From: an uncultured virus (IMG/VR IMGVR_UViG_3300021197_001546)
Taxonomy: Duplodnaviria; Heunggongvirae; Uroviricota; Caudoviricetes
Reading direction: 5' to 3' (one strand)
IMG/VR virus record: IMGVR_UViG_3300021197_001546
Length of the DNA stretch: 64,000 bases
Both the position numbers and the translations under genes were made by a program. The notes beneath the pieces are model-generated. The model was not told the DNA's origin. It did no database searches and was given only the letters and a program-made list of their open reading frames with translations. Position 1 is the stretch's first letter. Every line of letters begins with the position of its first letter. Positions 2-63,564 of this stretch are shown here, in pieces.

Positions 2-1380
2 GGTGTCAATGTTACTATCGGTATTGAGGACAGAAAAGGAACCATTCGCGGCACCTTCAAGGAAGATGTCGAACTAAAGGAATCCTTTGAGTTCCAATTC
101 GCAGACAAAGAAACCGCACAGGAGTTCATGCGAGAAATCTCACAGAAAAGATTAGGATCTTCGACTGGAACCAGTGATGGTAAGGTCAGGACAGAGGGTC
201 CAGCAGGAGCAGGTGTCGGTAGTCCAACACGGGCGCATCAGCAGATGGCAAAGATCATGAAGAAGCATGGTGGTAAACTACTACGCACAGACGAGGGCCC
301 TCGCATGAAGAGAGTCTTCAAGGAAGATGTCGAACAGGTTGATGAACTCAGTGCAAAGGCATTGAAGAAATATAGAGTCAAGTCTATGAAAGATCGTGAA
401 GATACCGTTCGTCAGGGTTATGATCCCTCGACAGGACAACTCGATCCGAAGTCAGAGAAGAGAAGAAAGAAGAGACTCGCAGGATTCTCCAAAGCGAAGA
501 AGAAGTTAGTTGCCGCAGCAGAGGATGTCGAACAGGTTGANNNNNNNNNNNNNNNNNNNNNNNNNNNNNNNNNNNNNNNNNNNNNNNNNNNNNNNNNNNN
601 NNNNNNNNNNNNNNNNNNNNNNNNNNNNNNNNNNNNNNNNAGGGTTATGATCCCTCGACAGGACAACTCGATCCGAAGTCAGAGAAGAGAAGAAAGAAGA
701 GACTCGCAGGATTCTCCAAAGCGAAGAAGAAGTTAGTTGCCGCAGCAGAGGATGTCGAACAGGTTGACGAACTCAAGAAGTCCACTCTCATGAGTTACAA
801 GGATAAGGCTAAGAAGAGTGAACGAAGCGGTAGAGACACAGGGTTCGAGGGTGAAACCTCATCCGAACGAGAAGCAGGCGTTCGACAGGTGAAGAAAAGA
901 GTAAGGGGTATTGATCGTGCAACCAAGAAACTCGTCGCTCGTCAATATGAAGATGTCGAACAGGTTGATGAAGTCTCGTCAGACACCCTTCGGTCTTATG
1001 TCCACAAGAGAAGAGGACAAGTTCAGAGTGATCTCTATACTGGCAAGCACTCCCCAAAGACTAACAAGAAAGCAAAGGGCGTATCTGCTGCACTCTCTCG
1101 TCTTGATGCCCGCAAGAACAACCTAGAGCCAAAACTCAAGAGGGAAGAAGTCGAGCAGGTTGATGAACTCAAGGTAAAAACCTTAAGATCCTACATCAGC
1201 AAGGCACAGAAGGACAACACCAAACGTGTCACCCGAATGGCAGACAAACCAGATCATATGCCTACGGACAAGGGTGAGATGGACAAGTTACGAAAGCGAC
1301 AAAAGGGTGTGGTAAAGGCGAAGACCGATATCGACATGCGTAAGATCGCTGGTAAAGACTACAGAAAGCGAATGAAATGA
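2..1380 (+). CDS. 5'-truncated modular basic protein with repeated EDVEQVDE linkers (putative internal head polyprotein); spans the assembly gap
   Basis: The frame is open from position 2 (GVNVTIGIEDRKG...). ORFs 128..736 and 790..1380 join in frame once the 100 N and the 127-bp duplicate are removed. Linkers start at 62, 323, 521/748, 949 and 1144. Confidence 0.75.
414..767. other. Scaffold gap (100 N at 541-640) flanked by an exact 127-bp duplication (414-540 = 641-767)
   Basis: Direct sequence comparison. 127 is a common maximum k-mer size, so this is most likely an assembly artefact. Confidence 0.9.
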
Positions 1381-1970
1381 GATTCCGATTCGCAATCAAT
1401 GAAGAGGGCGGTGCAGGAGAAGAAGGCACCAAGAAACTCCTCAAGCGTTATAAGAAAGACACTCCTGGCGAGAAGATGTGTGAGAAGGTCTATGCCGACT
1501 CGGGTCTTGGTAAGTGGTTTGGAGCAGGAGGAAAAGGTGGAGTCGGTAAAGGTGGATGGGATAGATATAACACTAAGGGTGAACGTCTCGGTAAGTGCGG
1601 AGACGGCAAACCAGGCGAGGGAACTCCCAAGTGTCTGTCCGCCAATAAAGCACGCCGACTGAAGGCCAAAGGTGGGAAGTCTGAAATTGCAAACGCAGTC
1701 AAGAGAAAGAAAGCAAAAGATCCAGTGAGGGATAAACCTGGCACTGGAAACAAACCAGTCAATGTCTCCAATAGATTAGACAAGAAGGAAAGCGTCATGA
1801 AATTACCCAACGGATACCTTACAGAGAAGAACAAACCAACCGATCCCAAGAAGTGGGCTGCTGCCGTATCAAAGGCAAAATCCAAGTTTGATGTCTATCC
1901 ATCTGCATACGCAAACGCATATGCATCCAAAGAATATAAGGCCGCCGGCGGGAGTTGGATAAAAGCATGA
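1377..1970 (+). CDS. Basic modular hypothetical protein, putative internal head protein
   Basis: Starts MRFRFAINE-E. Carries Lys/Gly-rich modules (LGKWF..GGW; KSKFDVYPSAYANAYASKEYKAAGGSW) typical of T4-like phage hypotheticals. ATGA overlap with the upstream gene. Confidence 0.7.
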   Translation: MRFRFAINEEGGAGEEGTKKLLKRYKKDTPGEKMCEKVYADSGLGKWFGAGGKGGVGKGGWDRYNTKGERLGKCGDGKPGEGTPKCLSANKARRLKAKGGKSEIANAVKRKKAKDPVRDKPGTGNKPVNVSNRLDKKESVMKLPNGYLTEKNKPTDPKKWAAAVSKAKSKFDVYPSAYANAYASKEYKAAGGSWIKA

Positions 1971-3052
1971 AGTTACCAAAAGGAAAACTAAACGAATGCT
2001 GGTCCACTCATGTTCAGAAAGGAACAAAGATGAAGGGCGGAAAGGTCGTCCCTAATTGCGTTCCTAAGTCATCTGTCTCTGAGGCCAAGAAAGATAAGAT
2101 CAAGATCAAACTAGATCCAGAGAAGAAGATTGGATATGAGGTAAAATCGGTTGGGCCAGGTGGTAAGACCACTGTCACCAAGCGTAGAGACATGCCAGGT
2201 AAAGAGGATGTCGGAGAGTCCCTAGAAGAGGCTAGTAAGAAGGACATCGCTGATCTTGTAAAGCAATACAATAAGATCAAAGGTAAGCAGGCGAAAGTGA
2301 GTGGTAGCATGGTGGTGGTAGATGGTAAGAAGATGAAAGCAGACGACGCTGCTGAGAAGATGGCTGCCGCAGTCATGAAGATGGAAGGTGCAGCGAAGAT
2401 AGGAACCATGGCATACTATTACGATCAAAAGAAGCGAAGCAAGACACCAGCAGACGCATACACAGCAGCAAAGTCCCAAGCAGGAAGATCAAGTTCAGAC
2501 AGTCAAAGAACGATGTCGGTGAAACAAAAAGCAAAAGATGATGAAAGAAGAAAATCCCAGGCTGCTTCTATGGAGAGAAGTCGCTATACTAAAGATAGCG
2601 TAGATCCGATGATTTCGTTCTCGAAGTACAGCAAACTGGACGAAGAATCAAAAAAAGTCGTTGCCCCTAAAGGATTTCATTGGATGAAAAAAGGAACCAA
2701 TGAGTATAAACTCATGAAGGATCCTGATGGGGGATTTAAACCACACGAGGGCGGTTCACAGGAAGCAGATTTCGAAGTCCAAACCGTCCACAAGGAAGAC
2801 TGGCAGAAGGTCAACCGCAAGGACAAGACTGATGGATTGAGTCAGAAAGCCGTCAACGCTTATCGACGCGAGAACCCAGGCTCCAAACTCAAGACTGCGG
2901 TCACAGAAAAGAAGCCATCTGGAAAAAGAGCAGCACGCAGGAAGTCATTCTGTAGTAGAATGTCGGGAATGAAGAAGCGTCTCACCAGTGCGAAGACTGC
3001 AAACGATCCAGATTCACGCATCAATAAAGCACTTCGTCGCTGGAACTGCTAG
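1967..3052 (+). CDS. Basic modular hypothetical protein, putative internal head protein
   Basis: Modules such as CWSTHVQKGTKMKGGKVVPNCVP and the C-terminal RRKSFCSRMSGMK...SRINKALRRWNC are separated by LNE/VSE/LEE/LDE junctions. Start placed at MKLPKG (ATGA overlap). Confidence 0.7.
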   Translation: MKLPKGKLNECWSTHVQKGTKMKGGKVVPNCVPKSSVSEAKKDKIKIKLDPEKKIGYEVKSVGPGGKTTVTKRRDMPGKEDVGESLEEASKKDIADLVKQYNKIKGKQAKVSGSMVVVDGKKMKADDAAEKMAAAVMKMEGAAKIGTMAYYYDQKKRSKTPADAYTAAKSQAGRSSSDSQRTMSVKQKAKDDERRKSQAASMERSRYTKDSVDPMISFSKYSKLDEESKKVVAPKGFHWMKKGTNEYKLMKDPDGGFKPHEGGSQEADFEVQTVHKEDWQKVNRKDKTDGLSQKAVNAYRRENPGSKLKTAVTEKKPSGKRAARRKSFCSRMSGMKKRLTSAKTANDPDSRINKALRRWNC

Positions 3053-3064
3053 TAAGGAGAAAAC

Positions 3065-4261
3065 ATGGGTGAAGTCCAAGACCAATTCAAACCTCAAAGA
3101 TTAAAACTTGATGGTAAGGTTATCCCTTATGAAAAGTACATAACTGAGGTAAAGAAAGCAGTAGAGGCGACTAAAATGCCATCTGGTGCAAAAACTTATT
3201 GTAAAGCATTGGTTGATCATGCCTCGGGTAAAATAAATGATAATCTAATGAAAAATGCAGGAGAGTTGTTTGCACAGTCCAAAGACTCTGATACTGAAAT
3301 AAAGAACGGGATTCAGAAATATTTCGGTGAAGTTGTCGGTCCTATCTGGGTCATTGGTAACAACGCATTCAATGATATGCCAAACAAGAGGGATGTTTCT
3401 GTATTTCACCCCTCAGCGGAAAATGAACCGCTAATGGATTATGAACTGCAAATACAAGAAAGTTCCAAGACCAAAAAAAGAGGTTCGACAACGAAAACCG
3501 CCTGTAAGAGAGTATCAACAAGTCAAAACAAGATAACCAAAATCAACACTCTACTCCGAAACAAAGTCTCAGCAAAGTCGGGTAAAACCACAAATACAGT
3601 AAAATCAAAAGATCTTCTCGATCTGATTGAAATGAGACCTGATGTCAAGAAATTTTGGACGGGTTCCATGCAGCATATTGTTCTCACCATTCTGAGAGAC
3701 AACAACACCGCACTAGGACCAATCAAAGCATTGGAATATTTGTCCAGTGTAGGGATTCTTCCCTCGACTTACTTCAAGGGACAATTTGTAACTAATGTAA
3801 TAAATGCTTTTGAATCAGCACCTTCAACGAAGGCTGCTCTCGGTCTTCCATTGGCTCGCGTATTGTCTGACGCAGACATCCAGAGACTAAAAAAACTAGT
3901 CATGGACGACAGGCAACTTACCGAAAGGTTTATTGATAAGGGAACAATTAAAACCGTCGCTAAAGACAAAGAAATATTCATCTTGGGTTATATCGCTGTT
4001 GCCGCAGAGAGAAAGTTAGAAAAAATATCAAAAGACCCCAATCTTCTTGAATTTTGGGAAATCTTTGGGGATGCTGTTGCGGGTATGGTAAACTACGTTA
4101 CTTTTGAAGTGGACTCTAAATACTTCCCAAAGTGGAAAGCGTCTGGTAGAAAGGAACTAGAGAAAGTTACTGGCTACTTCAGATCAAAAAACACGATGAA
4201 AACCCGTCTAGCGAAAAAAGGAATGGCGGATGGACTTGGGTTCCAACCAGAGTTTGGTTAA
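3065..4261 (+). CDS. Hypothetical protein, possible PD-(D/E)xK-like nuclease fold
   Basis: 398-aa ORF with an AGGAG RBS. The NEPLMDY...VSAKSG spacing resembles a restriction-endonuclease-like core, but weakly. Confidence 0.4.
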   Translation: MGEVQDQFKPQRLKLDGKVIPYEKYITEVKKAVEATKMPSGAKTYCKALVDHASGKINDNLMKNAGELFAQSKDSDTEIKNGIQKYFGEVVGPIWVIGNNAFNDMPNKRDVSVFHPSAENEPLMDYELQIQESSKTKKRGSTTKTACKRVSTSQNKITKINTLLRNKVSAKSGKTTNTVKSKDLLDLIEMRPDVKKFWTGSMQHIVLTILRDNNTALGPIKALEYLSSVGILPSTYFKGQFVTNVINAFESAPSTKAALGLPLARVLSDADIQRLKKLVMDDRQLTERFIDKGTIKTVAKDKEIFILGYIAVAAERKLEKISKDPNLLEFWEIFGDAVAGMVNYVTFEVDSKYFPKWKASGRKELEKVTGYFRSKNTMKTRLAKKGMADGLGFQPEFG

Positions 4262-4284
4262 TACATAATACAGGAGAATATACT

Positions 4285-4590
4285 ATGCCAACATATGATT
4301 ACCAATGTGAAGCCTGCAACCATCAATTCGATCGGTTTGAACTAATCGCAACACGGGACGAACCCTGCGATCGACCATGCCCCGACTGCAACGAAACCAA
4401 AGTCCGACGAGGATGGTTCAACGCGCCCGTGGGTGGTGTAGACGCTAATCTCACCCCAGACAAGGCCACAGGCGGACAGTGGTCAGAACTCATGAAACAA
4501 ATGAAAAACTCTCCCGTCCTTAATCGTGACGGTAAAGCCAACTTGGATCACGCATCAACCAAATCAGGAGTGCGGTATGGATCACAATGA
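4285..4590 (+). CDS. FmdB-family zinc-ribbon protein
   Basis: MPTYDYQCEAC...CPDC motif; AGGAG RBS. Confidence 0.8.
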   Translation: MPTYDYQCEACNHQFDRFELIATRDEPCDRPCPDCNETKVRRGWFNAPVGGVDANLTPDKATGGQWSELMKQMKNSPVLNRDGKANLDHASTKSGVRYGSQ

Positions 4591-4768
4591 GATTGATCAC
4601 AACGAGATTCCCGAAGGTCTAGGTGACAGCGTAGAAAAGTTCACCAAAGCCACTGGGATCAGGAAAGTTGTAGAGAAGATTGCAGAAAAGACAGGAAAAC
4701 CTTGTGGTTGCAACAAACGCAAGGAAAAACTAAATAAGATGTTCCCTTACGGAAAGAAAGACACATGA
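4577..4768 (+). CDS. Small hypothetical protein (GLGD...CGC..R...LN type)
   Basis: ATG at 4577 after GGAG; this motif is common in phage small proteins. Confidence 0.65.
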   Translation: MDHNEIDHNEIPEGLGDSVEKFTKATGIRKVVEKIAEKTGKPCGCNKRKEKLNKMFPYGKKDT

Positions 4769-4965
4769 AAACGTTCATCCAATTCTTAGAAGACGCACCA
4801 GCGAACAACGCCAGTAGCGGTAGTGTTGCAGGACTAGGCTCTGAGCCTCCCGTCTCCGTGAAGGGACAGAGGGCCCACCAGAAGAGAGTAGAGAAACTCT
4901 CTAAGGGAGCGACTGCTGGACGCAGAGGACTTGGACCAAAAATGGTAGGGATGGAACACTATTGA
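4765..4965 (+). CDS. Small protein with a T4 capsid-targeting-like N-terminus
   Basis: MKTFIQFLE-D compared with the T4 internal-protein targeting sequence MKTYQEFIAE. Confidence 0.7.
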   Translation: MKTFIQFLEDAPANNASSGSVAGLGSEPPVSVKGQRAHQKRVEKLSKGATAGRRGLGPKMVGMEHY

Positions 4966-5321
4966 TGGAAAGCATTCTTGAACGAGCAGTGCGACTTACG
5001 GTTGCACAAAGAAAGAAGAGAGGCTTGATCGCCAAACGCACGGCGAAGCGTCGTGCTTTTCGACGTAAGTTGAAAGCGAAGAGAATGAAGTCTCATGGCG
5101 ATCTGCTGACTAAAGCAAATAAGGCAGCCAGAAACATGTTCAAGAAGAAGTATTCAAGTGGCAGTAACTATAATGAACTATCATTCGCAGAGAAGGGCAT
5201 GATCGACAAACGTCTGGAAAGAATCCCTGCTGCCCGTCTCTCGAAGATAGCACAAAGAATGATGCCTAAATTGAAAAAGGCTGAAATGGATCGTTTAAAA
5301 CAAGCAAGGAAACAACCATGA
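4965..5321 (+). CDS. Very basic hypothetical protein conserved in T4-like phages
   Basis: Arg/Lys-rich protein of about 118 aa, starting MESILE-R. Confidence 0.65.
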   Translation: MESILERAVRLTVAQRKKRGLIAKRTAKRRAFRRKLKAKRMKSHGDLLTKANKAARNMFKKKYSSGSNYNELSFAEKGMIDKRLERIPAARLSKIAQRMMPKLKKAEMDRLKQARKQP

Positions 5322-5482
5322 AGATGAGTGATTTTTTCGGGTGGGTGCAATCGAATCAAAGAAAAGGCACCCTTGATCAGATGAATGCCGCATGGCAAAA
5401 CAGAAACCAAAGTCCAATCCCTGAACTAGAACAACCAGAGGAGAAGATAGAGGAGATTCCTGTTGACAATGAGGAAAAATGA
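5318..5482 (+). CDS. 54-aa hypothetical protein missing from the ORF track
   Basis: MKMSDFFGWVQSNQRKGTLDQMNAAWQNRNQSPIPELEQPEEKIEEIPVDNEEK*. It has an AAGGA RBS and ATGA overlaps at both ends, and fills the gap exactly. Confidence 0.7.
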   Translation: MKMSDFFGWVQSNQRKGTLDQMNAAWQNRNQSPIPELEQPEEKIEEIPVDNEEK

Positions 5483-5490
5483 TGTATACT
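5463..5490 (+). promoter_or_regulatory. sigma70-like promoter TTGACA-N16-TATACT
   Basis: TTGACA at 5463-5468 and TATACT at 5485-5490. An in-frame GTG at 5497 lies at the expected +1. Confidence 0.7.
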
Positions 5491-6150
5491 ACAGATGTGA
5501 AACACTTTACCCATGTCACTGATCTAGCACTTGAAGACCTAAAAACAGTCAACGAGAATGGCAAAAGATTCTATCAGACACCGAACGGCAACTATCCTTC
5601 GGTGACGACAGTGACTGGCTTCAAGAAGAACAAGTTCTTCGCGGAATGGCGACGTAAGAATCCCAAGGAGTCTGTGCGGGTTACCAGTCGTGGTAACAAA
5701 CTACACAGTCTCATTGAGGACTACCTGAACAACGAGTTCAACCCCGAGACAGATAAGGGCCGTGTAACTCCAGACACATTGGAGTTGTTTCTGCAACTAA
5801 AGCCTGAACTCGACAAGATCGATAACATTCACGCATTAGAAGTTGCTCTATGGTCTGATACCTTGGGCCTTGCTGGTCGTGTTGACTGCATAGCAGAGTA
5901 CAACGGCAAGTTGTCTATCATCGACTTCAAAGGTGCTACCCGCTCAAAGCGACGAGCGGATATTGGTAACTACTTTCAGCAGGCAACAGCGTATGCGATT
6001 GCATGGCACGAAAGAACTGGTATCGCAATAGACAACTTCGCTATCCTCGTTTCATGTGAGGATAGCGAAGTTCAAGTCTTTGAGGGCAATCCACTACAAT
6101 ACGTTCGAAGCCTAAAAGGCGTAATCGAAGAGTATCAGTGTAGTCTGTAG
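5479..6150 (+). CDS. PD-(D/E)xK (RecB/Cas4-like) exonuclease
   Basis: YPSVTTV, RGNKLHSLIE, AGRVDC, IIDFK and YFQQATAYA motifs. Confidence 0.85.
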   Translation: MMYTTDVKHFTHVTDLALEDLKTVNENGKRFYQTPNGNYPSVTTVTGFKKNKFFAEWRRKNPKESVRVTSRGNKLHSLIEDYLNNEFNPETDKGRVTPDTLELFLQLKPELDKIDNIHALEVALWSDTLGLAGRVDCIAEYNGKLSIIDFKGATRSKRRADIGNYFQQATAYAIAWHERTGIAIDNFAILVSCEDSEVQVFEGNPLQYVRSLKGVIEEYQCSL

Positions 6151-6407
6151 ACACTGGTTCCCGTGGTAATAGCACCAACATGGAATACGGTCACTGGAAA
6201 TACTACTCCTGCGGACGAACCTTGAATAATAATTTCTCCGCCTGATGTTCCGTGAGCCGGTTGTCCAGTTACACCTGCACTATAATCGGCCGATCGTGGG
6301 TAGAGTGCTGCGGTTCCCTGTCCTACCACTAAGACACCCTTATTGTTATAGGGTTGATCCGTATTAGCCGAAACGGGATCTGCTGCTTGATATCTATCGT
6401 ATGACAT
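6135..6407 (-). CDS. Hypothetical protein
   Basis: 90-aa ORF with an AGGAG RBS on the minus strand; a lone opposite-strand gene in the cluster. Confidence 0.6.
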   Translation of the reverse strand: MSYDRYQAADPVSANTDQPYNNKGVLVVGQGTAALYPRSADYSAGVTGQPAHGTSGGEIIIQGSSAGVVFPVTVFHVGAITTGTSVYRLH

Positions 6408-6450
6408 TTAATACTCCTCTGTATTTTCCTACATACCGTAGGAGTTATTT

Positions 6451-7653
6451 ATGCTAGGTTTCACTAACTATTTAGTAGAAAGCAAAAATCTACATCTGGA
6501 ACACCTAGAGGATTCTCTCTTCAATGAAGGATCTGCGGGGGTGGAGGATGCACTACGATTCTGCGAATCGTTGGTAGAGATGCTTTCTGGATCAAAAAAA
6601 TCCCGAACCAACGTGACGGTGAAGTGGGATGGCGCACCAGCAGTTTTTGCTGGAACTAATCCAGATAATGGTAGATTCTTCGTTGGAACCAAATCAGTTT
6701 TCAACTCGAAGACTCCCAAGATAAACTACACAGCAGCAGACATCAAAAAGAACCACCAAGGCGGACTACAGGACAAACTCCTCACCGCACTGCCTCTATT
6801 CAAGAAACTTGGAATAAAGGGTGTTCTTCAGGGAGATTTGCTCTTCACTGATGATGTAGAAGAAAAATCCATAGATGGGGAAAACTACCTAGTTTTCACC
6901 CCTAATACTATCACCTACGCGGTTTCTATCGATAGTGACATGGCAAAACAGATCAAAAAAGCAAAGGTTGGAGTTGTCTGGCATACTACATATTCAGGTA
7001 AGTCAATGCTAGAGATGAAAGCCTCGTTTGGTGCGAATGTTAGTGGCCTGAGAAAAATTAACGATGTATTTTTCACAGACGCCGACTTCAGAGACACTTC
7101 GGGTTCTGCCACATTCACGGCAACCGAAACTGAGTCCGCCTCTAATGCTATTGCCAATGTAAAGCGATCATTCATGCCAGTGCGTCGGTTCATTGATGAA
7201 TTCACAGGTAAGAAATCAATAATCGACGAACTGAAAATCTACGCCAACTCACAAGTCCGAAAAGGTAGCGTGAGGCTTTCTGCGGAGGAGTTCACAACAT
7301 TCGTGAACGACAAAATGCAGAAGGGCGTAGATTCTTTAAAGTCAGAGAGAGGTAAGACGAACAAACAAAAGAAGATGAAAGAAGTTGTTGGTTATCTCCA
7401 ACGAAATAGAGCAAGAATTCAAAAGATTTTCTCTCTGCATGAAGAACTCGTCAATCTAAAACTAAAATTTGTTCGCAAATTAGAACAAGTGAAGTCTCTC
7501 GGTATGTTTATTCGAACCAGTGATGGTTATCGTGTCACATCTCCTGAAGGATTTGTTGCCATAGATAAGTTTAAAGGTAATGCTTACAAACTCGTAGACA
7601 GGATGGAGTTCTCAAGAGCAAACTTCACTGTCGCAAAGAACTGGAGAAAGTAA
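6451..7653 (+). CDS. Conserved T4-like protein with ligase-superfamily nucleotidyltransferase motifs (DUF6267-like)
   Basis: KWDG (motif I), LQGDLLF (III), PEGFVA (IV) and YKLV (V). N-terminus MLGFTNYLVE-S. TACATA box and GGAG upstream. Confidence 0.65.
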   Translation: MLGFTNYLVESKNLHLEHLEDSLFNEGSAGVEDALRFCESLVEMLSGSKKSRTNVTVKWDGAPAVFAGTNPDNGRFFVGTKSVFNSKTPKINYTAADIKKNHQGGLQDKLLTALPLFKKLGIKGVLQGDLLFTDDVEEKSIDGENYLVFTPNTITYAVSIDSDMAKQIKKAKVGVVWHTTYSGKSMLEMKASFGANVSGLRKINDVFFTDADFRDTSGSATFTATETESASNAIANVKRSFMPVRRFIDEFTGKKSIIDELKIYANSQVRKGSVRLSAEEFTTFVNDKMQKGVDSLKSERGKTNKQKKMKEVVGYLQRNRARIQKIFSLHEELVNLKLKFVRKLEQVKSLGMFIRTSDGYRVTSPEGFVAIDKFKGNAYKLVDRMEFSRANFTVAKNWRK

Positions 7654-7898
7654 TGGGACCAAGAGAACTAGAAGCAATCGTAAACAACTCAAGAAGAATC
7701 CAAATGATGGAAGATTATATCGCCACTCACGGTGGTGAATTTGAGTGGGATAAGCATTGCGGTTGGGGATACATTCCCGAAAAAGTTGTCAGTAACAAGA
7801 TCGAAAAGTTCGAAAAGAGAGCAAAGCAAAGAAGTGAAACCCAGGCCAAAAAAAGAGGTCTGTTTAGTCGAAAGATAAAGAATGAAGAGACTGAGTGA
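7653..7898 (+). CDS. Hypothetical protein
   Basis: 81-aa ORF coupled to the upstream gene (TAATG overlap). Confidence 0.55.
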   Translation: MGPRELEAIVNNSRRIQMMEDYIATHGGEFEWDKHCGWGYIPEKVVSNKIEKFEKRAKQRSETQAKKRGLFSRKIKNEETE

Positions 7899-8469
7899 AC
7901 AAAGGAGAAGCCGAGGAATCGTCGTTACTTTCGGACGATTCCAACCTCCCACTTCTGGTCATGAATTAGTCATGAGGAAGGTGTTATCTGTAGCAAAAAA
8001 GATGGGGTTTGAACATCGAATTTATACATCCCCCTCATCGAGCAATGTCAAGAATCCGCTTCGATACAAAGAAAAGGTTCGGTTTCTACGAGCCCTGTTT
8101 CCACAAGCAAATATCTATGAAGATTCAAGAATTATCAATCCATTCTTCATGATGAAGCAACTCAGCGACCAAGGATACAAAAACGTTATCCTTATCGTTG
8201 GTTCGGATCGAGTGGTCGATATGTCATCACAGATAAAGAAGTACATCAAGCATAGAGACAAAGAAAAGAGTTTCGAATTTGATAACTTCAAGGCAGTTTC
8301 GTCTGGAGATAGAGATCCAGATGCAGAAGGTGCAGCAGGAATGTCAGGTACAAAAATGAGACAAGCGGTAGCCGATGAAGACTTTGAACTATTCATGCAA
8401 GGTCTACCAAAGAGAACCACCCCTAGGCTTGGACAATCTCTGTTCAATGCCATTCGAAAAGCGTTATAA
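7882..8469 (+). CDS. HxGH-family (cytidylyltransferase/NMNAT-like) nucleotidyltransferase
   Basis: TFGRFQPPTSGHE, KNPL, IVGSDR and MSGTKMR motifs. Confidence 0.85.
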   Translation: MKRLSEQRRSRGIVVTFGRFQPPTSGHELVMRKVLSVAKKMGFEHRIYTSPSSSNVKNPLRYKEKVRFLRALFPQANIYEDSRIINPFFMMKQLSDQGYKNVILIVGSDRVVDMSSQIKKYIKHRDKEKSFEFDNFKAVSSGDRDPDAEGAAGMSGTKMRQAVADEDFELFMQGLPKRTTPRLGQSLFNAIRKAL

Positions 8470-8478
8470 ATATAAATA
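8465..8478 (+). promoter_or_regulatory. Tandem T4 late promoter TATAAATA
   Basis: TATAAATATAAATA upstream of GAGGAGG and the ATG at 8501. Confidence 0.75.
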
Positions 8479-8500
8479 CTATTCCGAGGAGGAATCACAA

Positions 8501-8821
8501 ATGTTAAACGATCCAAAGTACAAGAACCTAGTTAACGACATCTCAGGTATCCTTAGCGAAAACATCAAGAAGCACTTCGACGGGCTTCTCCCAGAAGCAA
8601 TCGTCGATCAAATTGATCTCGCAGCATCAAAGATTGACGAAATGGACCAGTCCGCTCTGACAGCAGAGACAGTGGGCCAGATCATGAAGGATCACTTCTT
8701 TGAAGGTGTTCGTAACGCTAAAGTAAATCCCACTAACGAAATGTCTTCCGAGTTCTATCGTCGAGTAGTCGAGGCGAAGAAGAACAAGAAGAAGAACGAC
8801 AAATCTAACGGCGCATACTGA
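8501..8821 (+). CDS. Hypothetical protein
   Basis: ATG at 8501 with a strong RBS; the ORF-track start at 8375 lies inside the upstream gene. Confidence 0.7.
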   Translation: MLNDPKYKNLVNDISGILSENIKKHFDGLLPEAIVDQIDLAASKIDEMDQSALTAETVGQIMKDHFFEGVRNAKVNPTNEMSSEFYRRVVEAKKNKKKNDKSNGAY

Positions 8822-8833
8822 GGAGTACCACCG

Positions 8834-9751
8834 ATGAAGAGATTCAAAGAACTACGAGAAAACTTTATGGTAGAATCGGAGTTTAGTCCTTACGGTCTAA
8901 GCAATCGTTCTATTCATACAGACGACGGAACTCATCGTCTCGACAATACAGAGAACCTCGGACGAATCAATGCATTCATCGAGAACTTTCTCTCCAGTAA
9001 CACGCTTCATGCAAAGGCCAAACTAGAACAACTAAAGATCAGACTCAACCACATCGGGTTGGACTTTGATGTTAGAGGTGGTCTTGTTGACGAAAACGTC
9101 ACTTCGTATCCTGTCAGTTACTACGGTAAGGTGTTCGGATACAAGATGGAAAATGGTGTCTCGACTGGCGAGATTGGTGATCAAGATCTTGCTACCGAAA
9201 AGTTCGGAAAGCCTTTGGCTCTATCCGTTCGTCAGACAGGTGAAGGTGTTGTTCAACTAGAGGCTAAGATTCACTTTGTCGGTGAAGAAGAAGGACTAGG
9301 CGAAGATGCTTTAGAACTTCGTCTCCACATTGATAATGATGAAGTCATCTTCGAAAGTAAGATTCTTCCTGCTCTTGAAAATGCAGAAGATATCGACGAA
9401 GCCCTTCGTGGACTCATGTACGCAGTTCGCTCTGCTGTCAAGGGATACGAAATGGATGTCAGCGATGATGATATCCAAGCCGTAGCAGAGTCGATTCTAA
9501 TGGACACACTCGATCCCGAAGAGGACGAGGACGATGAAGATTTACTTGAAGTTGAGGTAGAACTCGACGAACTCGATAAATCAACCGTAAAAAATTATGA
9601 GCGAAAAGCGAAGATCGGTTACGATATTGCCAAGGACATGTCAAAGCATGAACCAAAGAAGGATGATCGTGACGAAATGAAAAGAGTCGCAAAAAGAAGA
9701 GCCATGGGTATGGCTAGAGCATCTGCACGAACAGAAGACGAACGAGGTTGA
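8834..9751 (+). CDS. Modular hypothetical protein, putative internal head protein
   Basis: Starts MKRFKELRE-N. Has an EVELDELDKSTVKNY module like those of the 2..1380 protein and an ELRLHIDND module shared with the gene at 62454. Confidence 0.7.
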   Translation: MKRFKELRENFMVESEFSPYGLSNRSIHTDDGTHRLDNTENLGRINAFIENFLSSNTLHAKAKLEQLKIRLNHIGLDFDVRGGLVDENVTSYPVSYYGKVFGYKMENGVSTGEIGDQDLATEKFGKPLALSVRQTGEGVVQLEAKIHFVGEEEGLGEDALELRLHIDNDEVIFESKILPALENAEDIDEALRGLMYAVRSAVKGYEMDVSDDDIQAVAESILMDTLDPEEDEDDEDLLEVEVELDELDKSTVKNYERKAKIGYDIAKDMSKHEPKKDDRDEMKRVAKRRAMGMARASARTEDERG

Positions 9752-9772: not shown

Positions 9773-9780
9773 TATAAATA
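9773..9780 (+). promoter_or_regulatory. T4 late promoter TATAAATA
   Basis: Exact match 8 nt upstream of the ATG at 9789. Confidence 0.75.
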
Positions 9781-9788
9781 TAATTGTT

Positions 9789-10166
9789 ATGAATTTTTCT
9801 TTGTTGAATGAAACCAACTTTATCATGTATGCCATGAAAAACTATGAGAACCCGACATGTACGGGAATAGATGAATTCCATGAAGATCTAAACCGTGTGA
9901 AATATGTGAAGCGTCTTTTTCGTAAATATGAGAAGAGCAAAATTCTCCGTGAAAGATTAATATTAAATCATTTGATCATTCTTGGTAATGTGTTCGGTCC
10001 TACGGTTTGCTCCAGAATTATGTTTTATAAAACCGAAGTCGAACTGCATTCATACCTTAAGACTTTTTTGATCTATCTAAATTACTTGCCAAAAGAAATA
10101 GAAGAAATAGATCTAGAATTAATACCGTTGGATAATGAAATAGTAGAAAAACTTCGGAGTCTCTAA
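9789..10166 (+). CDS. Conserved T4-like hypothetical protein
   Basis: NFIMYAMKNYENP.C...EF.EDL.R.KY.KRL...ERLILNH motif, recurrent in marine T4-like phages. Confidence 0.75.
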   Translation: MNFSLLNETNFIMYAMKNYENPTCTGIDEFHEDLNRVKYVKRLFRKYEKSKILRERLILNHLIILGNVFGPTVCSRIMFYKTEVELHSYLKTFLIYLNYLPKEIEEIDLELIPLDNEIVEKLRSL

Positions 10167-12186: not shown

Positions 12187-12200
12187 GGAGATTCTTTCAT

Positions 12201-35074: not shown

Positions 35075-35083
35075 TATAATTCC

Positions 35084-36965: not shown

Positions 36966-36973
36966 ACAACATC

Positions 36974-38068: not shown

Positions 38069-38081
38069 AATTTTAAAATCC

Positions 38082-59272: not shown

Positions 59273-60781
59273 TCAGATGTTGTTCTGAAGACCAGATCCG
59301 ATACCGTGTAGGTTGTCTACGCGGAAGATGCGGTAATACTGGTTCTTGCGGAACGACTGGGCTGCGGTGGGATCGGAGGTACTCGCAGTGTTGATACTAA
59401 CGAATGGGTTGTTAACAAGACCGTAACGGGTCTTGAATCCGATCTTGGGCTGGAAAGTATCCTCACCAACAGCACGAACCATCTGGAGTGGAACGTATGG
59501 GCAGTAGAAGAGTCCAGCATCATATGGGCTGGTTCCCTTATATCCGACACATACGAAGTCACGTCCAGCATCCGCAGCAGCGGTGTGGGCTACACCAGGT
59601 CCAGCGTAAGGATCAATGTAAACCTTGATCTTACCGTTGAGTGTACCAGCAAAGGTGTTGCCAGTGTCGTCAACGTTCAGGCTGGTTGCGAGAGCAGGAC
59701 TGATGTTAAGGAATCCACTCATAGCGAGGGCGGAAGCAACATCTGACGAGCAGATGATGAAGTTGCCCTTACCACGACGGGTATCCTTAGCGATACGGTT
59801 GCACTCACGTTCGATCTGGAACATGAGTCCTCTGTATCGCTCTGCACTCCATCGACCGTCCGAGTCACGGGCGAGGTCGTAGACACCACCAACACCTCGA
59901 CCGAACGATCCACCGAGAGCATCAGCAACGGTAACACCAGTGCTAACACCAGTTCCTTCGGTGTATGACTGTGAGGTAGTTCCTGCTGCTCGTCCAAAGA
60001 GGTCGAGTTGCTGGGCACCAAGTTTAGCACCACGGTAGATCGTACGCATTACTTCGCGGTTGATCTCAGCGAGAATTTCGCTGGACATGATGTTAGCGAG
60101 TTCACTCTCAGCATCAAGTCCGTGAACGGCCTTGAGGTCTTGAGCGAGTTCGGTGCTGTACTCAGCCTTGAGGGCACGACTCTTCGCTTCGACAGCGGTT
60201 CTCTCGATTGAGAATGCCATCTCGGGGAAGGCGTTACCCGCGGCGTCACCAAGAGTTTCAGCGTCCGAGCGGGTGAAGGGATCGAGACCTTCGATTGGAT
60301 CGGCGGTGAATCCTTCGTAGTTACCCTGAACAACATCACCCGCGGCAGTGTAGGTGGGAAGAGTTCCAGTAACACCAGCACGGTTCTGAGCCTCGTTGAA
60401 GAGAGCCTCGTTGGCCGAGTTCGCTGCGTCGTACTTAGCACGCATGGCGAAGATAAGTCCAGTGGGACCAGTCATGGGCTGGACACCACATACATCGTAA
60501 GCCATGAGGTTGGGCATGGCACGACGAACGAGCGAGATAAGGATGGGATCAAATCCCTTGATGTTTCCCTCACCACCGATGACTGGTGACATACCGCCAC
60601 CTGCGGCGTTGGTTGGTGCTGCTTCTGCGAGATACTGTTCACGAACAGCCTTCTCTTGGTTTTCGAGAACGACAGCAGTGACGTTCTTCTTATAGGGGTC
60701 TTCGATTGAAGGTAGGTCAGCGTGGTTAAGCACGGGAGCCCACTTCTCTTGTAACATTTCGGTTGAACCTAAGTTGTCCAT
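59273..60781 (-). CDS. gp23: Major capsid protein
   Basis: LLENQ-type VLENQE, GVQPMTGPTGLIFAMR, KSRALKAEY and FQPKIGFKTRYG. Confidence 0.98.
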   Translation of the reverse strand: MDNLGSTEMLQEKWAPVLNHADLPSIEDPYKKNVTAVVLENQEKAVREQYLAEAAPTNAAGGGMSPVIGGEGNIKGFDPILISLVRRAMPNLMAYDVCGVQPMTGPTGLIFAMRAKYDAANSANEALFNEAQNRAGVTGTLPTYTAAGDVVQGNYEGFTADPIEGLDPFTRSDAETLGDAAGNAFPEMAFSIERTAVEAKSRALKAEYSTELAQDLKAVHGLDAESELANIMSSEILAEINREVMRTIYRGAKLGAQQLDLFGRAAGTTSQSYTEGTGVSTGVTVADALGGSFGRGVGGVYDLARDSDGRWSAERYRGLMFQIERECNRIAKDTRRGKGNFIICSSDVASALAMSGFLNISPALATSLNVDDTGNTFAGTLNGKIKVYIDPYAGPGVAHTAAADAGRDFVCVGYKGTSPYDAGLFYCPYVPLQMVRAVGEDTFQPKIGFKTRYGLVNNPFVSINTASTSDPTAAQSFRKNQYYRIFRVDNLHGIGSGLQNNI

Positions 60782-60830: not shown

Positions 60831-61769
60831 TCACTTGTTTGGGTTACGGAGGGCGCGTGAATACGCCTCCATGAGTGGGGTCCCAGCGGAAGGCTGAACA
60901 CCTTCTTCGGGGGTAGTGACATCAGTTTCTTCGGTGATTGGTGAGTTCTCGGTGTACGACTCAATGAGAGTGTCGAGTTTCTCGGTGAATTGATCAACAC
61001 CGTCAAACTCAATACCTTCGGCGAGAGTACGAAGACGATCGACTTCAGTCTCCAAGAGACCTTCGGTCTTCTCTTCGAATACGAGAGCACAATCAGCGAA
61101 AGTCTTGTCCTTGCTGAGTTCGATGTTATTATTGACGGCTTCATCGAGACGGGAACGAAGTTCCTCTACCTCGGTAGCGAGTCCGTCAACAAGATCATAC
61201 TTCTCTTCGGGGACATCGATGAAGGAAGACTCGAAGAGATCTCGGAGTCCACCAATGAAGTTCTCTGCGACTTCGGTACGAATACCACTTTCGACAGCGA
61301 TTTCATTTTCCTTCATCCAGTTCTCGACGACATATCCAAGATAGTCATCAAGACGCTCGGTGATTTCGTGCTGAAGTTTCTCAACGGCTTCAGTGAGGGC
61401 AACTTCGTATGCTTCGTAGAGTTCACCTTCAACGGCGCTAGTACGCTCATTGATGGCAGTCTCGAAGATAGTGGCTGCTTTACTTCTGAAATCCTCTGAG
61501 AGATCTTCGCCGTTGAAAAGAGCATCAAGATGCTCCTTAGTCATGGAAGGCTTTTCGACCTTGGCGTTTGCGGCGGATGACTTCATCTTTACGCTAGCCT
61601 GGTTTTTCGAAGCCTTACCTTCGGTTCCCTTATCGGTATCAATCTTAGGCTTTTTGCCTTGGGTGTCCTGTTCATCATCGAGGTCAAGAATTGTTTCAGC
61701 CTCGTTGACAACTACTTGCTCTTCTGCGAGTAGTTGTTTTGCTACTTCGACTGGATCGGTATAGTCCAT
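60831..61769 (-). CDS. gp22: Prohead scaffolding core protein
   Basis: LSEDF..KA.TIFE.A and YL.YVVE.W..EN..A; synteny. TATAAATA at 61802-61809 (-). Confidence 0.92.
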   Translation of the reverse strand: MDYTDPVEVAKQLLAEEQVVVNEAETILDLDDEQDTQGKKPKIDTDKGTEGKASKNQASVKMKSSAANAKVEKPSMTKEHLDALFNGEDLSEDFRSKAATIFETAINERTSAVEGELYEAYEVALTEAVEKLQHEITERLDDYLGYVVENWMKENEIAVESGIRTEVAENFIGGLRDLFESSFIDVPEEKYDLVDGLATEVEELRSRLDEAVNNNIELSKDKTFADCALVFEEKTEGLLETEVDRLRTLAEGIEFDGVDQFTEKLDTLIESYTENSPITEETDVTTPEEGVQPSAGTPLMEAYSRALRNPNK

Positions 61770-61812
61770 TTATAGACTCCTTTGCTCTGAAAGTTTCAAT
61801 TTATTTATATGA

Positions 61813-62454
61813 TCAAAGATTTTGGATGAAGTTTTTGAAGACCTCAAGTTTTTCTTCTTCTAGTTCTTTTCGTGTTGCTTCCTGAATACGTCTTCGGTAG
61901 TTTTCAATTTGTCTTTCTTTGAAAATACCATCATCATAAATCCATTCTTTTCCTTCCATGATACCATCAACAAAGGCATCAGGAGCAGAAGGATCTGCAA
62001 CGATATCAACTGCGGATAGCATGAAGTCTTCTTGAACTTCGTTTACACCACCCACATTTTTGATTGAACCCATTCCACGGGAAGAAACGCCTAGTTTTGC
62101 TCCGCCATCGATAAGATTTTGTACAATCTTTCCGTATGGTGTGTCTAGGATTTTGGCCTCACCGTATACATCATTACCTTCGTAACGAAGATCGTTGATT
62201 AAGTGCGATACTCTTTCGAGGTTTACAGTTGGACCGTCTGGATGACCCAGTTCGCCTAGTGCTCTGCTTCCCTTGACATACTTATCAATGTAGCGATTGG
62301 TTTCACCGAAAAGGGTATCTCTTCCATATCTTCTACCATTACGGTTTACTTTTTCTGCTTGCATGAAGATACCTTTGATGGAATAGTTTTTCTTTCCATC
62401 TGTTTCCTCGCAAACAAGTTGGACATCTTCGTTGACTTCAGTGATTAGTAACAT
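61813..62454 (-). CDS. gp21: Prohead protease
   Basis: NRNGR.Y, LGELGHP, GVSSRGMGS and DIVADPSAPDA. Confidence 0.96.
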   Translation of the reverse strand: MLLITEVNEDVQLVCEETDGKKNYSIKGIFMQAEKVNRNGRRYGRDTLFGETNRYIDKYVKGSRALGELGHPDGPTVNLERVSHLINDLRYEGNDVYGEAKILDTPYGKIVQNLIDGGAKLGVSSRGMGSIKNVGGVNEVQEDFMLSAVDIVADPSAPDAFVDGIMEGKEWIYDDGIFKERQIENYRRRIQEATRKELEEEKLEVFKNFIQNL

Positions 62455-63380: not shown

Positions 63381-63564
63381 CTTCGTTATCTCCTTCTTCG
63401 GAATCTGTTTGGTTTTGCATGAGAGATGAAGACATAGAAATTTCTGCATCTCTAAGTCTTTCGGAAACTTTAGTGGAGATCGCTCTCTTAAACGAATCTT
63501 CAAAGTCTACAACGTTGCTGTCTACAACAGCCTTGAACATGTCACTGTATTCATTTTCTGGCAT
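63361..63564 (-). CDS. Small prohead core protein (gp67-like)
   Basis: Small acidic helical protein immediately after the portal gene. Confidence 0.6.
   Translation of the reverse strand: MPENEYSDMFKAVVDSNVVDFEDSFKRAISTKVSERLRDAEISMSSSLMQNQTDSEEGDNEDEREDD

Follow-up and report, generated by a model that had tools for sequence, protein, structure and literature searches.

Genome fragment and gene content

The window analysed is a 64,000-nt stretch of DNA that is part of the genome of an uncultured marine T4-like myovirus. The T4-likeness proposed in the initial annotation was borne out by a gp21-type protease, by a scaffold of the gp22 type and by the late sigma factor gp55, and the head and late genes matched in the window were gp20, gp21 protease, gp22, gp23 and gp55. 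The annotation had also picked out seven N-termini resembling the T4 capsid-targeting sequence, all of which were present, at or adjoining the positions it gave. The features are as follows, with a slash placed after the Glu where the next residue is given.

2..1380, + strand: K/E-rich repeat protein, open at the 5' end of the window, with a 100-N run at 541-640
1377..1970, + strand: K-rich modular protein (197 aa), T4-GC119 homologue (phrog_12753/3477/727); listed N-terminus MRFRFAINE (1377-1403)
1967..3052, + strand: K-rich modular protein (361 aa), T4-GC119 homologue with a C-terminal DUF6321 (PF19846, E 5e-16); listed N-terminus MKLPKGKLNE (1967-1996)
3065..4261, + strand: 398-aa protein with a core-like YEKYITE at residues 22-28 (3128-3148)
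4765..4965, + strand: 66-aa protein, leader MKTFIQFLE/D (listed, 4765-4791), passing the specific rule given below
4965..5321, + strand: 118-aa basic protein, shortened leader MESILE/R (listed, 4965-4982), homologues in 28 loci
5479..6150, + strand: PD-(D/E)XK / Cas4-like exonuclease (PF12705; phrog_298, E 3e-63), without leader
6451..7653, + strand: DUF6267 protein (400 aa; PF19782, E 2e-118), canonical leader MLGFTNYLVE/S (listed, 6451-6480)
7882..8469, + strand: cytidylyltransferase-like (HxGH) nucleotidyltransferase (195 aa; PF01467; phrog_3041, E 1e-49); listed N-terminus MKRLSE (7882-7899)
8834..9751, + strand: 305-aa protein with an acidic C-terminus, leader MKRFKELRE/N (listed, 8834-8860), passing the specific rule
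59273..60781, - strand: gp23 major capsid protein, in which the T4 maturation cut FLTE/A aligns with YLAE/A
60831..61769, - strand: gp22-type scaffold protein, with a TATAAATA box upstream at 61802-61809
61813..62454, - strand: gp21-type prohead protease (phrog_207, E 4e-77)

The prohead protease shares 44% identity with T4 gp21 across 147 residues and is the predicted leader-cutting enzyme. The gp22-type scaffold showed the strongest [LI]-x-E excess among window proteins (14 occurrences against 6.6 expected from shuffled sequences; z 3.8), and the gp23 maturation site is conserved, the cut falling after residue 53 by alignment to T4. The N-terminus of the protease itself reads MLLITE, and the exonuclease at 5479..6150 also matches TIGR00372, below cut-off.

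ORFs 2-540 and 643-1380 probably belong to a single gene, the 100-N gap falling inside the tandem repeat of the K/E-rich protein. Complete 'EQVDE' repeats number at least four (nt 332, 757, 958 and 1153) and the gap truncates a further one; a leader-like stretch (e.g. ..TLRSYISKA) comes after every copy. An N-terminal leader was not visible in this protein, and it matched no Pfam or PHROG family. Both K-rich modular proteins align by tblastn with P-SSM4 PSSM4_160, 1377..1970 with residues 34-162 (E 9e-12) and 1967..3052 with residues 53-385 (E 8e-27). MRFRFAINE, proposed as a leader, does contain I-N-E and otherwise departs from the conserved leader pattern; MKLPKGKLNE directly precedes a 'CW..KG..VPNC' module. 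Two proposed internal copies were confirmed: MKLPNGYLTE at 1797-1826, directly upstream of a 'YPSAYAN' module, and MISFSKYSKLDE at 2609-2644, ahead of the DUF6321-containing part. The proteins of 1377-3052 carry leader-like linkers at their module borders and may be cleaved into small basic pieces. For 3065..4261, neither an N-terminal leader, a known family (Pfam, PHROG) nor a homologue among 81 related loci was found.

Leader motif and statistics

Marine leaders are 9-13 residues long and conform to the consensus M-K-(S/T)-F-K-x-(F/Y)-(L/I/F)-x-E, with A, D, G or E as the next residue. Three window genes (4765, 6451 and 8834) fit the pattern M-x-x-F-x-x-hydrophobic-(L/I/F)-x-E; of these, 6451 alone reaches the complete 10-residue length, and 4765 and 8834 are each one residue short. 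According to PMC9026906, residues 4 and 7 of the T4 targeting sequence matter for targeting, and residues 8 and 10 for processing. The proposed resemblance to T4 MKTYQEFIAE held, in that the window leaders agree at these key residues and recur on many unrelated families. MESILE (4965) and MKRLSE (7882) keep L-x-E and lack the targeting-relevant aromatic residue.

Two search rules were applied, a loose rule (any [LI]-x-E within the first 20 residues) and a specific rule (Met, an aromatic residue within 6, then x-x-hydrophobic-(hydrophobic)-x-E). The loose rule did not discriminate, marking 7 of the 21 genes called in 1-11.6 kb compared with 11 of the 54 in the rest of the window. The specific rule gave 17 matches over the six frames of the window and, at accepted gene starts, matched only cluster members (4765, 6451, 8834 and 9789) and none outside the cluster; the match at 9789 is probably just the start of a DUF7207 domain.

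Across the 81 related loci, first Mets of + strand ORFs (≥80 aa) satisfied the specific rule in 189 of 1032 cases, internal Mets in 96 of 6479 and first Mets of the opposite strand in 3 of 212, the rate at first Mets being about 12 times the internal one (odds ratio about 15); because these statistics count related sequences, P values overstate independence. At the first Met it was found in 216 of 2311 ORFs (207 on the + strand, 9 on the - strand). A strict 10-residue rule gave 53 distinct matches among 522,245 six-frame residues, every one on the coding strand, 50 of them within 30 codons of an upstream stop and 46 at the first Met. With leaders removed, the 207 + strand leader proteins found by the specific rule fell into 26 clusters, about 20 of which were judged to be real unrelated families. 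Residues at positions left free by the rule were also non-random: of 130 leaders, 94 had A, D, G or E at P1'.

That a few N-termini resemble the T4 sequence by chance would fit the loose rule, which is common everywhere, and is scarcely credible given the enrichment at first Mets, strand specificity, family spread and conservation over 81 loci under the specific rule; the strict- and specific-rule counts over related loci refute it. A constraint acting on the nucleotides around the start of translation (A/U-rich initial codons, or a site for a RegA-type repressor), with no signal in the protein, is disfavoured as very improbable. The leader codons (K, F, I, Y, E) are A/T-rich and the phage encodes a RegA homologue, but synonymous codon proportions are about equal in leaders and gene bodies (F TTT 73% vs 78%; E GAA 83% vs 77%), which places selection at the protein level; substitutions are conservative for the protein (F/Y, L/I/V/F), and the element also lies within fusion proteins, distant from start codons.

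Leaders among homologues

The leader of the DUF6267 protein directly adjoins a conserved block, KN.HLEHLED. Among 80 DUF6267 homologues, 41 have an N-terminal leader, and 7 more probably reach one via other start codons; in 11 the leader is internal, preceded by a fused domain 113 residues or more in length, and 7 are leaderless, with their first residue at the conserved block, the predicted cut point. Cyanophage versions likewise open with MSKNTHLEHLED or MAKNTHLEHLED. Residues 1-17 of the window protein have AlphaFold2 pLDDT below 50, which is weak evidence since termini are often poorly predicted.

The other leader-bearing genes varied similarly. The counterpart of the 4765 protein in a close relative (L002) opens with MKRFKQFLE/D. 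Many homologues of 4965..5321 carry full leaders (MITFKQFITE/KPLTPSQR, MLSFRQFLTE/K), and some are fused onto the ends of larger enzymes. The nucleotidyltransferase 7882..8469 has the shortened leader MKRLSE/Q, with full leaders in most of the homologues shown from 60 loci. The 8834..9751 protein matched no known family (Pfam, PHROG); its distant relatives open with MKSFKKYIAE/A and MKNFTTFVKE/N.

Virion proteomics of cyanophages

In purified S-SM1 virions, T4-GC190 was detected with 25 peptide counts and T4-GC119 with 13 (Sullivan et al. 2010, PMC3037559, main text and Table S8). The window 7882-8469 protein matches the P-SSM4 GC190 member at E 4e-38. The S-SM1 T4-GC190 protein, SSM1_190, opens with MKKFSAFLNE/A, and a leader stands at the start of GC190 in S-SM1 and most of 16 cyanophages. 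The proposal that the cluster proteins are head cargo is thus supported in part, through virion homologues of two window families (GC190 and GC119). In the available portion of PMC3037559, the leaderless cyanophage DUF6267 (T4-GC71) is absent from the same virion list.

A partial reading, rather improbable, is that the cytidylyltransferase and the GC119-like proteins do belong to the virion while their leader is a propeptide that serves processing or folding and does not target them. Consistent with this, S-SM1 GC119 is in virions despite a non-canonical start (MPLVNQEAE), window genes 7882 and 4965 retain only L-x-E, and Syn9 GC190, which bears the leader MKKFSAFLSE, was not detected in Syn9 virions as Table S8 reads (PMC3037559). 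The Syn9 miss is weak evidence, however, because its list in Table S8 is shorter than that of S-SM1; and the T4 ten-residue sequence alone suffices to target foreign proteins according to PMC9026906, the key positions being retained in the marine consensus.

Promoter boxes, gene order and timing

The following boxes were located in the cluster region.

8465..8478, + strand: two overlapping TATAAATA boxes, within the short gap ahead of gene 8501-8821, with 8834 also downstream
9773..9780, + strand: TATAAATA box, 8 nt upstream of the DUF7207 gene 9789-10166

The listed genes had been described as lying behind TATAAATA/TACATA boxes, which was mostly not confirmed: the + strand boxes instead precede 8501 and 9789, and in five of the seven listed cases the gene begins before the stop codon of its predecessor has ended, with no intergenic space. 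There are 5 exact TATAAATA matches in the 64 kb, three of them on the + strand (8465, 8471 and 9773), and 6 of 100 shuffles reach 5. The box was no commoner within 80 nt upstream of leader ORFs (22 of 190) than of other ORFs (73 of 845).

The + strand block at 1-11 kb represents, in this phage, a cluster that follows gp43, uvsX and gp41 on the same strand in 50 of 80 relatives, and likewise in Melnitz, HTVC008M and P-HM2; in Melnitz, HTVC008M and P-SSM4, where both flanks were seen, the cluster is bordered by gp41 (helicase) on one side and gp61 (primase) on the other. The gp43/uvsX/gp41 region is early or middle in T4, so this position argues against purely late synthesis. With boxes absent for most genes, the description of the cluster as late-made was not supported, and neither was its extent of about 10 kb of cargo, as only about 8 of about 20 genes carry a leader or leader-like element.

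The same gene order, together with the lack of a late-promoter excess, would suit a leader that is a shared intracellular N-terminal tag, unrelated to the capsid, for docking onto a common hub (a replication, nucleotide-metabolism or repair complex, for example) or for timed degradation. Many tagged proteins resemble nucleic-acid or nucleotide enzymes (cytidylyltransferase-like, P-loop, DUF6267, the Melnitz C5-methyltransferase), and T4 61.1 has the same type of leader without a head-protein annotation. We regard such a tag as unlikely: it leaves unexplained the constant hydrophobic-x-E end with its small or acidic residue, a gp21-family cleavage signature, the start of leaderless homologues just past the Glu, and the leader-bearing GC190 enzyme in purified virions (PMC3037559).

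Interpretation

The reading we favour, with moderate confidence, is that the leaders are T4-type targeting and cleavage propeptides. The leader would bind the prohead scaffolding core, the leader-bearing protein would be incorporated into the head, and the gp21-type protease would then cut after the Glu, leaving the mature protein free inside the capsid. The motif, its N-terminal position, its spread over families and its presence or absence among homologues were observed directly; targeting, cleavage and delivery into the cell we infer. The injection and counter-defence roles raised for the cluster proteins in the initial annotation are putative. A description of such leaders in marine T4-like phages was not found in the literature. 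These results suggest that the proteins packed, and perhaps injected, by T4-like phages of the ocean may be many more than recognised and may include enzymes.

Comparison with known systems

In phiKZ, 201phi2-1 and SPN3US, a protease related to gp21 cleaves many proteins of the head interior behind the Glu of a short motif, S/A-x-E in the case of phiKZ, and the propeptides are thought to direct incorporation (PMC9026906); these giant phages differ from the window phage in lineage, motif and propeptide lengths. S-SM1 GC190 (annotated 'cytitidyltransferase') and GC119, homologous to window 7882-8469 and 1377-3052, are called structural in PMC3037559, the available text of which mentions no leader, propeptide or internal location. 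Compared with cyanophage GC190, the window homologue is a short form (195 aa) with only MKRLSE.

Unlike the T4 internal proteins, the putative marine cargo belongs to other families and takes in enzymes and multi-module K-rich proteins, and no window protein matched an 'internal virion protein' PHROG (E up to 0.001). The marine genes lie in the gp41-gp61 region, unlike the T-even internal protein locus, P3 is often F or Y as against L/I-x-E in the T4 motif, and the marine element also occurs as an internal linker. The product of T4 gene 61.1 (54 aa, hypothetical) starts with the marine-type leader MKTFKEFIKE/D, and its gene, flanked by 41 and 61, shares this neighbourhood with the marine cluster. 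It is small and has a Gly/Ser/Ala-rich stretch past the Glu, like the window 66-aa protein (4765-4965), with which BLASTP gave no alignment; literature on its function or location was not found.

In T4, IPII and IPIII carry the leader MKTYQEFIAE, found twice in the T4 record, and IPI a related propeptide; like the marine leaders, the targeting sequence is an N-terminal element of about 10 residues. Common to both are Met, a basic residue, an aromatic at 4, hydrophobic residues at 7 and 8, and Glu at about 10, then a small residue. As in the T4 internal protein system, the tagged mature proteins are mutually unrelated, and gp21-type protease and gp22-type scaffold homologues are encoded. Some marine leaders are near-identical to that of T4, namely MKTYKSFIE, MKTYKTFLE and, in P-SSM7, MKTYSQFIE.

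Head genes and protease of the window phage

PHROG scans of the long ORFs identified the window as a T4-like myovirus, in which a tail tube, gp55 late sigma factor, RegA, gp44/62/45, gp46/47, gp43, UvsX/Y/W, gp41, gp61 and ribonucleotide reductase were found together with the following head genes.

63551-63988, - strand, portal (PHROG scan)
61813-62454, gp21-type prohead protease (phrog_207, E 4e-77; 44% identity to T4 gp21)
60831-61769, - strand, gp22-type scaffold (phrog_237, E 3e-69)
59273-60781, gp23 capsid protein (PHROG scan)

The capsid protein was at most 56% identical to that of any cultured phage, with best matches in pelagimyophage HTVC008M, methylophage Melnitz and cyanomyoviruses, and no near-identical DNA was found for the window among cultured phages. 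A gp21-family protease and a gp22-type scaffolding core, both expected of a phage with capsid-targeting sequence (CTS) cargo, are encoded in the same phage, and the gp23 maturation site is conserved (window YLAE/A aligned to T4 FLTE/A; here and below, a slash marks the predicted cut after Glu). Among window proteins, the excess of [LI]-x-E was strongest in the gp22 homologue (14 observed, 6.6 expected, z 3.8), which agrees with a scaffold degraded at such sites. The N-terminus of the prohead protease itself is MLLITE, and that of its HTVC008M counterpart MKLITE.

Leader-like N-termini in the window

T4 gp21 cleaves after L/I-x-E, and T4 internal-protein propeptides are N-terminal, 10-19 residues long and serve targeting to the core; in IPIII, the N-terminal ten residues are sufficient for targeting, with residues 4 and 7 assigned to targeting and 8 and 10 to processing (PMC9026906). 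Every N-terminus quoted as T4-like by the initial annotation, belonging to genes starting at 1377, 1967, 4765, 4965, 6451, 7882 and 8834, is present in the sequence. These genes belong to a block that spans 1-11.6 kb on the + strand and runs in the direction opposite to the replication and head genes. The leaders end in the gp21 motif at 6451 (LVE), 8834 (LRE), 4965 (ILE), 7882 (LSE), 1967 (LNE) and 1377 (INE), and that of 4765 ends in FLE, with F at P3. Scored as CTS cargo (propeptide of about 10-19 residues, aromatic near position 4, hydrophobic near position 7), the genes at 4765 (F4, F7), 6451 (F4, Y7) and 8834 (F4, L7) carry both residues; window genes 4965, 7882, 1377 and 1967 do not, and homologues of 4965 and 7882 do. 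The short form MESILE (4965) has homologues in 28 loci, with full leaders among them (for example, MITFKQFITE/KPLTPSQR), as does MKRLSE (7882), with homologues in 60 loci (for example, MKSFEEYLVE/ESKEVVFTFGRFNPPT). Among the cytidylyltransferase homologues, a few have no leader, and their N-terminus coincides with the fold's first strand. The listed N-termini are best explained by a T4-type propeptide, serving targeting and cleavage, that part of the cluster has in common, and we consider this reasonably probable.

Leaders were compared with early genes over the 64 kb window and the related loci, and their enrichment in the block held under a specific rule and failed under a loose one. The loose rule (an L/I-x-E anywhere within the N-terminal 20 residues) matched 7 of 21 genes inside the block and 11 of 54 outside; since it did not discriminate, it was replaced by the specific rule (Met, aromatic within six, then x-x-hydrophobic-(hydrophobic)-x-Glu). 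Of the accepted gene starts in the 64-kb window, this rule matched four, at 4765, 6451, 8834 and 9789, all of them inside the block. The match at 9789 aligns with the DUF7207 domain start in homologues and was not counted as a leader.

Homology of the 66-aa leader protein (4765-4965) to T4 gp61.1 was not supported (no BLASTP alignment, no PHROG in common), nor is it claimed for T4-GC426, a cyanophage virion protein (PMC3037559) with a similar-looking N-terminal region; a tblastn search of the window with the P-SSM4 member gave no match. Complex prediction of the same protein with the gp22 homologue scored 0.00 in two runs without controls and speaks neither for nor against binding. No homology was found between 10166-10960 and T4 gp61.2 (AdfA). 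For 8834-9751 and 3065-4261, Pfam, PHROGs and NCBIfam gave no match at the chosen E limits, with chance-level rows above them, and 8834-9751 stayed below 0.9 in the protein atlas. The cluster's only long gap (6151-6450) holds a 90-aa ORF (6135-6407, - strand) with a good ribosome-binding site and no family match.

Leader statistics across related loci

Relatives were collected by searching IMG/VR with the DUF6267 protein (6451-7653), giving 80 loci. A strict rule, the ten-residue form, was run over the window and loci (522,245 six-frame residues) and gave 53 distinct matches, all on the coding strand, 50 of them within 30 codons of an upstream stop and 46 at the first Met. The looser, specific rule given above was matched in the 81 loci by 189 of 1032 first Mets as against 96 of 6479 internal Mets, and on the opposite strand by 3 first Mets of 212; these statistics count related sequences, so that the P value overstates independence, and the spread over families is independent of it. 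This looser rule matched the first Met of 216 ORFs out of 2311, with 207 matches on the + strand and 9 on the - strand; the + strand matches, stripped of the leader, fell into 26 clusters. About 20 of these were judged real; the N-termini of DNA polymerase and DUF7207, like a few singletons, seem to be chance matches. The biggest cluster has 96 members, in which fusion proteins join cytidylyltransferase, P-loop and small basic proteins.

Near-T4 forms such as MKTYKSFIE/G and MKTYKTFLE/D were seen among the leaders. Over 130 distinct leaders, P3 was L in 42, I in 34, F in 30 and V in 11, and P1', which the rule does not fix, was A, D, G or E in 94. Codon use in the leaders is similar to that in the gene bodies, which indicates that the constraint acts on the protein.

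Cluster genes have been fused and split repeatedly among relatives, often at leader positions. Homologues of 4965-5321 are fused C-terminally to cytidylyltransferase or P-loop proteins in L012 (10562, 957-aa ORF) and L073-L075 (488-594-aa ORFs), four of the related loci.

The DUF6267 protein

The protein at 6451-7653 matches PF19782 over its full length (E 2e-118; residues 13-396 cover all 376 model positions), the model beginning after the leader. In most homologues the leader stands directly before the conserved block KN.HLEHLED (for example, MLSFAQLLNE/D, MNNFGQFLTE/D, MIKFGTYLIE/D, MKSFRRLLNE/D, MISFNKFVTE/E). By automatic classification, 41 of the 80 homologues have an N-terminal leader and 18 have extra in-frame sequence before the leader core, which in 11 is a fused upstream domain of at least 113 residues and in 7 (24-31 extra residues) probably reflects alternative start codons. 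A longer variant, MISFKKHTEQLSE, occurs in 6 homologues; 7 (L069-L075) lack the leader and start at the conserved block, 4 are fused without a leader, and the other 4 are degenerate, truncated or unreadable. Cyanophage proteins likewise start at the block (P-HM2, MSKNTHLEHLED; S-PRM1, MAKNTHLEHLED; P-SSM4, MPNKHLEHPED). These leaderless forms mark the leader as a separable module whose end coincides with the predicted cut.

DUF6267 is nearly confined to T4-like marine phages, with matches in 466 phage records (Synechococcus 366, Cyanophage 61, Prochlorococcus 24, Methylophilales 4, Pelagibacter 2, among others). In an AlphaFold2 model (30-sequence alignment, mean pLDDT 72), residues 1-17 were below 50, which agrees weakly with a free N-terminal extension. 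A K-W-D-G motif suggested a ligase-like fold. Foldseek returned nothing at E ≤0.001, with a tRNA ligase domain and T4 Rnl1 at E 0.2-0.4 only; the VIA-align (wide) list held mostly helical bundles, and hhalign against T4 RnlB gave a probability of 0.05%. Searches of PDB profiles, NCBIfam and the protein atlas for a function gave nothing significant.

Two window gene families with homologues among virion proteins

Purified S-SM1 virions were analysed by Sullivan et al. 2010 (PMC3037559), who detected a "putative citidylyltransferase (T4-GC190)". As the columns of their Table S8 read, 25 peptide counts in S-SM1 belong to GC190, which is undetected in S-PM2 and Syn9; in S-SM1, T4-GC119 has 13 counts and T4-GC425 (S-layer domain) and T4-GC426 have 17 each (PMC3037559). 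The genes of the latter two belong to P-SSM4's gp41-gp61 cluster. DUF6267 (T4-GC71) is absent from the Table S8 list (PMC3037559), and the cyanophage members inspected (P-HM2, S-PRM1, S-RIM32, P-SSM4 and those among the printed supplement entries) are leaderless.

The window gene at 7882-8469 belongs to the GC190 family (tblastn with P-SSM4 PSSM4_155, E 4e-38) and is cytidylyltransferase-like (PF01467 E 1e-5, above the cut-off; phrog_3041 E 1e-49), its G-R-F-x-P-P-T-x-G-H nucleotidyltransferase motif reading TFGRFQPPTSGH. The N-terminus of the S-SM1 protein, SSM1_190, is MKKFSAFLNE/A, and a full leader is present in 12 of the 17 GC190 entries printed in the supplement; four lack it (short forms of P-HM1, P-HM2 and Syn1, and an S-PM2 fusion), and one more is a stray small protein (PMC3037559).

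GC119 proteins are strings of small basic modules. With P-SSM4 PSSM4_160 as query, tblastn matched 1967-3052 (E 8e-27) and 1377-1970 (E 9e-12), and the former has a C-terminal DUF6321 (PF19846, E 5e-16). In several cyanophages, leader-like linkers precede the modules (..ISFSQFNE/K.., ..DDFEFVNE/G..), and elsewhere single modules stand behind an N-terminal leader (P-SSM7, MKTYSQFIE/E; Syn1, MKSFKQLRIDINE/S). The window copies MKLPKGKLNE, MKLPNGYLTE and MISFSKYSKLDE lie at GC119-type module borders, so that both internal leader copies proposed by the initial annotation are present and are real features.

Beside the detection of GC190 in S-SM1 virions, two observations count against the propeptide reading: Syn9 GC190 bears a leader yet is undetected in Syn9 virions, and the S-SM1 GC119 protein begins MPLVNQEAE, which is non-canonical (PMC3037559). 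The main alternative, in which the leader serves as a common tag for some role inside the cell, is judged unlikely, and the T4-type propeptide is preferred. Particle location and N-terminal processing of GC190 and GC119 are unmentioned in the parts of PMC3037559 covered.

Genomic setting and expression timing

In 50 of the 80 loci, the cluster is downstream of gp43, uvsX or gp41 and co-directional with them; gp41 and gp61 flank it in Melnitz, HTVC008M and P-SSM4. Late synthesis from promoter boxes upstream of the leader genes had been proposed and was not supported. The box TATAAATA occurs just five times in the window, preceding genes 8501 and 9789 on the + strand, and five of the seven listed genes start overlapping the stop codon of the preceding gene, which counts against promoter boxes. 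Across loci, TATAAATA preceded 22 of 190 leader ORFs and 73 of 845 other ORFs, showing no enrichment; together with the cluster position in relatives, this argues against late synthesis. The parts of a pelagiphage transcriptome paper (PMC12753301) covered do not include HTVC008M.

Other features of the window and relatives

A run of 100 N (541-640) falls within a tandem repeat, and the protein sequence before the gap, ..GYDPSTGQLDPKSEKRRKKRLAGFSKAKKKLVAAAEDVEQV, recurs after it in another frame, from 643. Given repeat sequence on both sides, ORFs 2-540 and 643-1380 probably form a single long repeat protein rich in K and E, whose translation probably does not begin at the ATG at 790. In this protein the repeats contain EQVDE followed by a leader-like ..TLRSYISKA, which was sought in the related loci and seen in the window only. 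Aeromonas-phage gp61.1 homologues have ..QVDE/D at the place corresponding to the leader cut (PMC3037559 supplement), and V-D-E might therefore be a protease site in the window repeats.

In Melnitz-3, a C5 DNA methyltransferase, annotated as HhaI-type (L082 2730-3947 = MZ577098 4010-5227), has the N-terminus MKYFRYTLDE, with its FxGxG motif about 18 residues further on; the N-terminus may be a leader attached to a DNA-modifying enzyme. In the window, 33791-42642 (- strand) is an island of lower G+C (0.36-0.41) holding glycosyltransferases, an aminotransferase, a nucleotide-sugar epimerase and a formyltransferase-like gene, and may serve sugar modification of DNA or a surface structure. The 1267-aa protein at 12180-15983 (+ strand) has no match in Pfam, PHROG or NCBIfam, and is 25% identical to its counterpart in the close relative L002, against 80-96% for neighbouring genes; it is large and evolves fast, and may be a fibre or serve host recognition.

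Interpretation and comparison with T4

We infer that leader-marked proteins may be injected and act in counter-defence. More tentatively, the leader could mark a large, unrecognised set of head-packed proteins that are co-delivered with the DNA in marine T4-like phages and act early, for example against defences, a reading we hold to be possible and lean against. Such a set would extend over pelagimyophages, methylophages, cyanomyoviruses and uncultured relatives, and would comprise about 20 families, including the cytidylyltransferase-like enzyme, DUF6267, P-loop proteins and the Melnitz C5 DNA methyltransferase. Internal leader-like linkers would be the points at which K-rich polyproteins are cleaved to release small DNA-binding fragments, the cargo would be active in the first seconds of infection, ahead of any phage gene expression, and it could be read from genome sequence via the leader.

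T4-like myoviruses are among the commonest marine viruses, with hosts including SAR11, Prochlorococcus and Synechococcus. If the ten-residue leader is reliable, packaged and possibly injected proteins of thousands of uncultured phages become predictable from sequence, a prediction that is both broad and directly testable. If the reading is true, the function of the conserved, unexplained gp41-gp61 gene cluster becomes testable, and the T4 targeting system would be ancient in the T4 superfamily, with cargo extending beyond small basic proteins to enzymes. There is also reason to look again at T4 gene 61.1 and at existing cyanophage virion mass-spectrometry data. In the literature searched, which under-represents subscription journals, no description was found of leaders like the targeting sequence in marine T4-like phages, and nothing relevant on HTVC008M virion proteomics.

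T-even internal proteins are diverse defence proteins with only the targeting sequence in common (PMC3012670). In the T4 record, MKTYQEFIAE occurs exactly twice, in genes labelled IpII and IpIII in the PMC3037559 supplement, and a degenerate DNA leader pattern found, besides ipII and ipIII, a third gene.

NC_000866 18966-19130, - strand, T4 gene 61.1, 54-aa hypothetical protein, starts MKTFKEFIKE/D

Gene 61.1 lies between T4 genes 41 and 61, beside 61.2 (Pfam AdfA, anti-DarT factor), sp and dmd; nothing on its function or location was found in the literature searched. An RB43 P-loop protein starts MKSFKDFVSLDE/A (PMC3037559 supplement). The N-terminus of T4 gene 61.1 differs little from the targeting sequence of IPII and IPIII.
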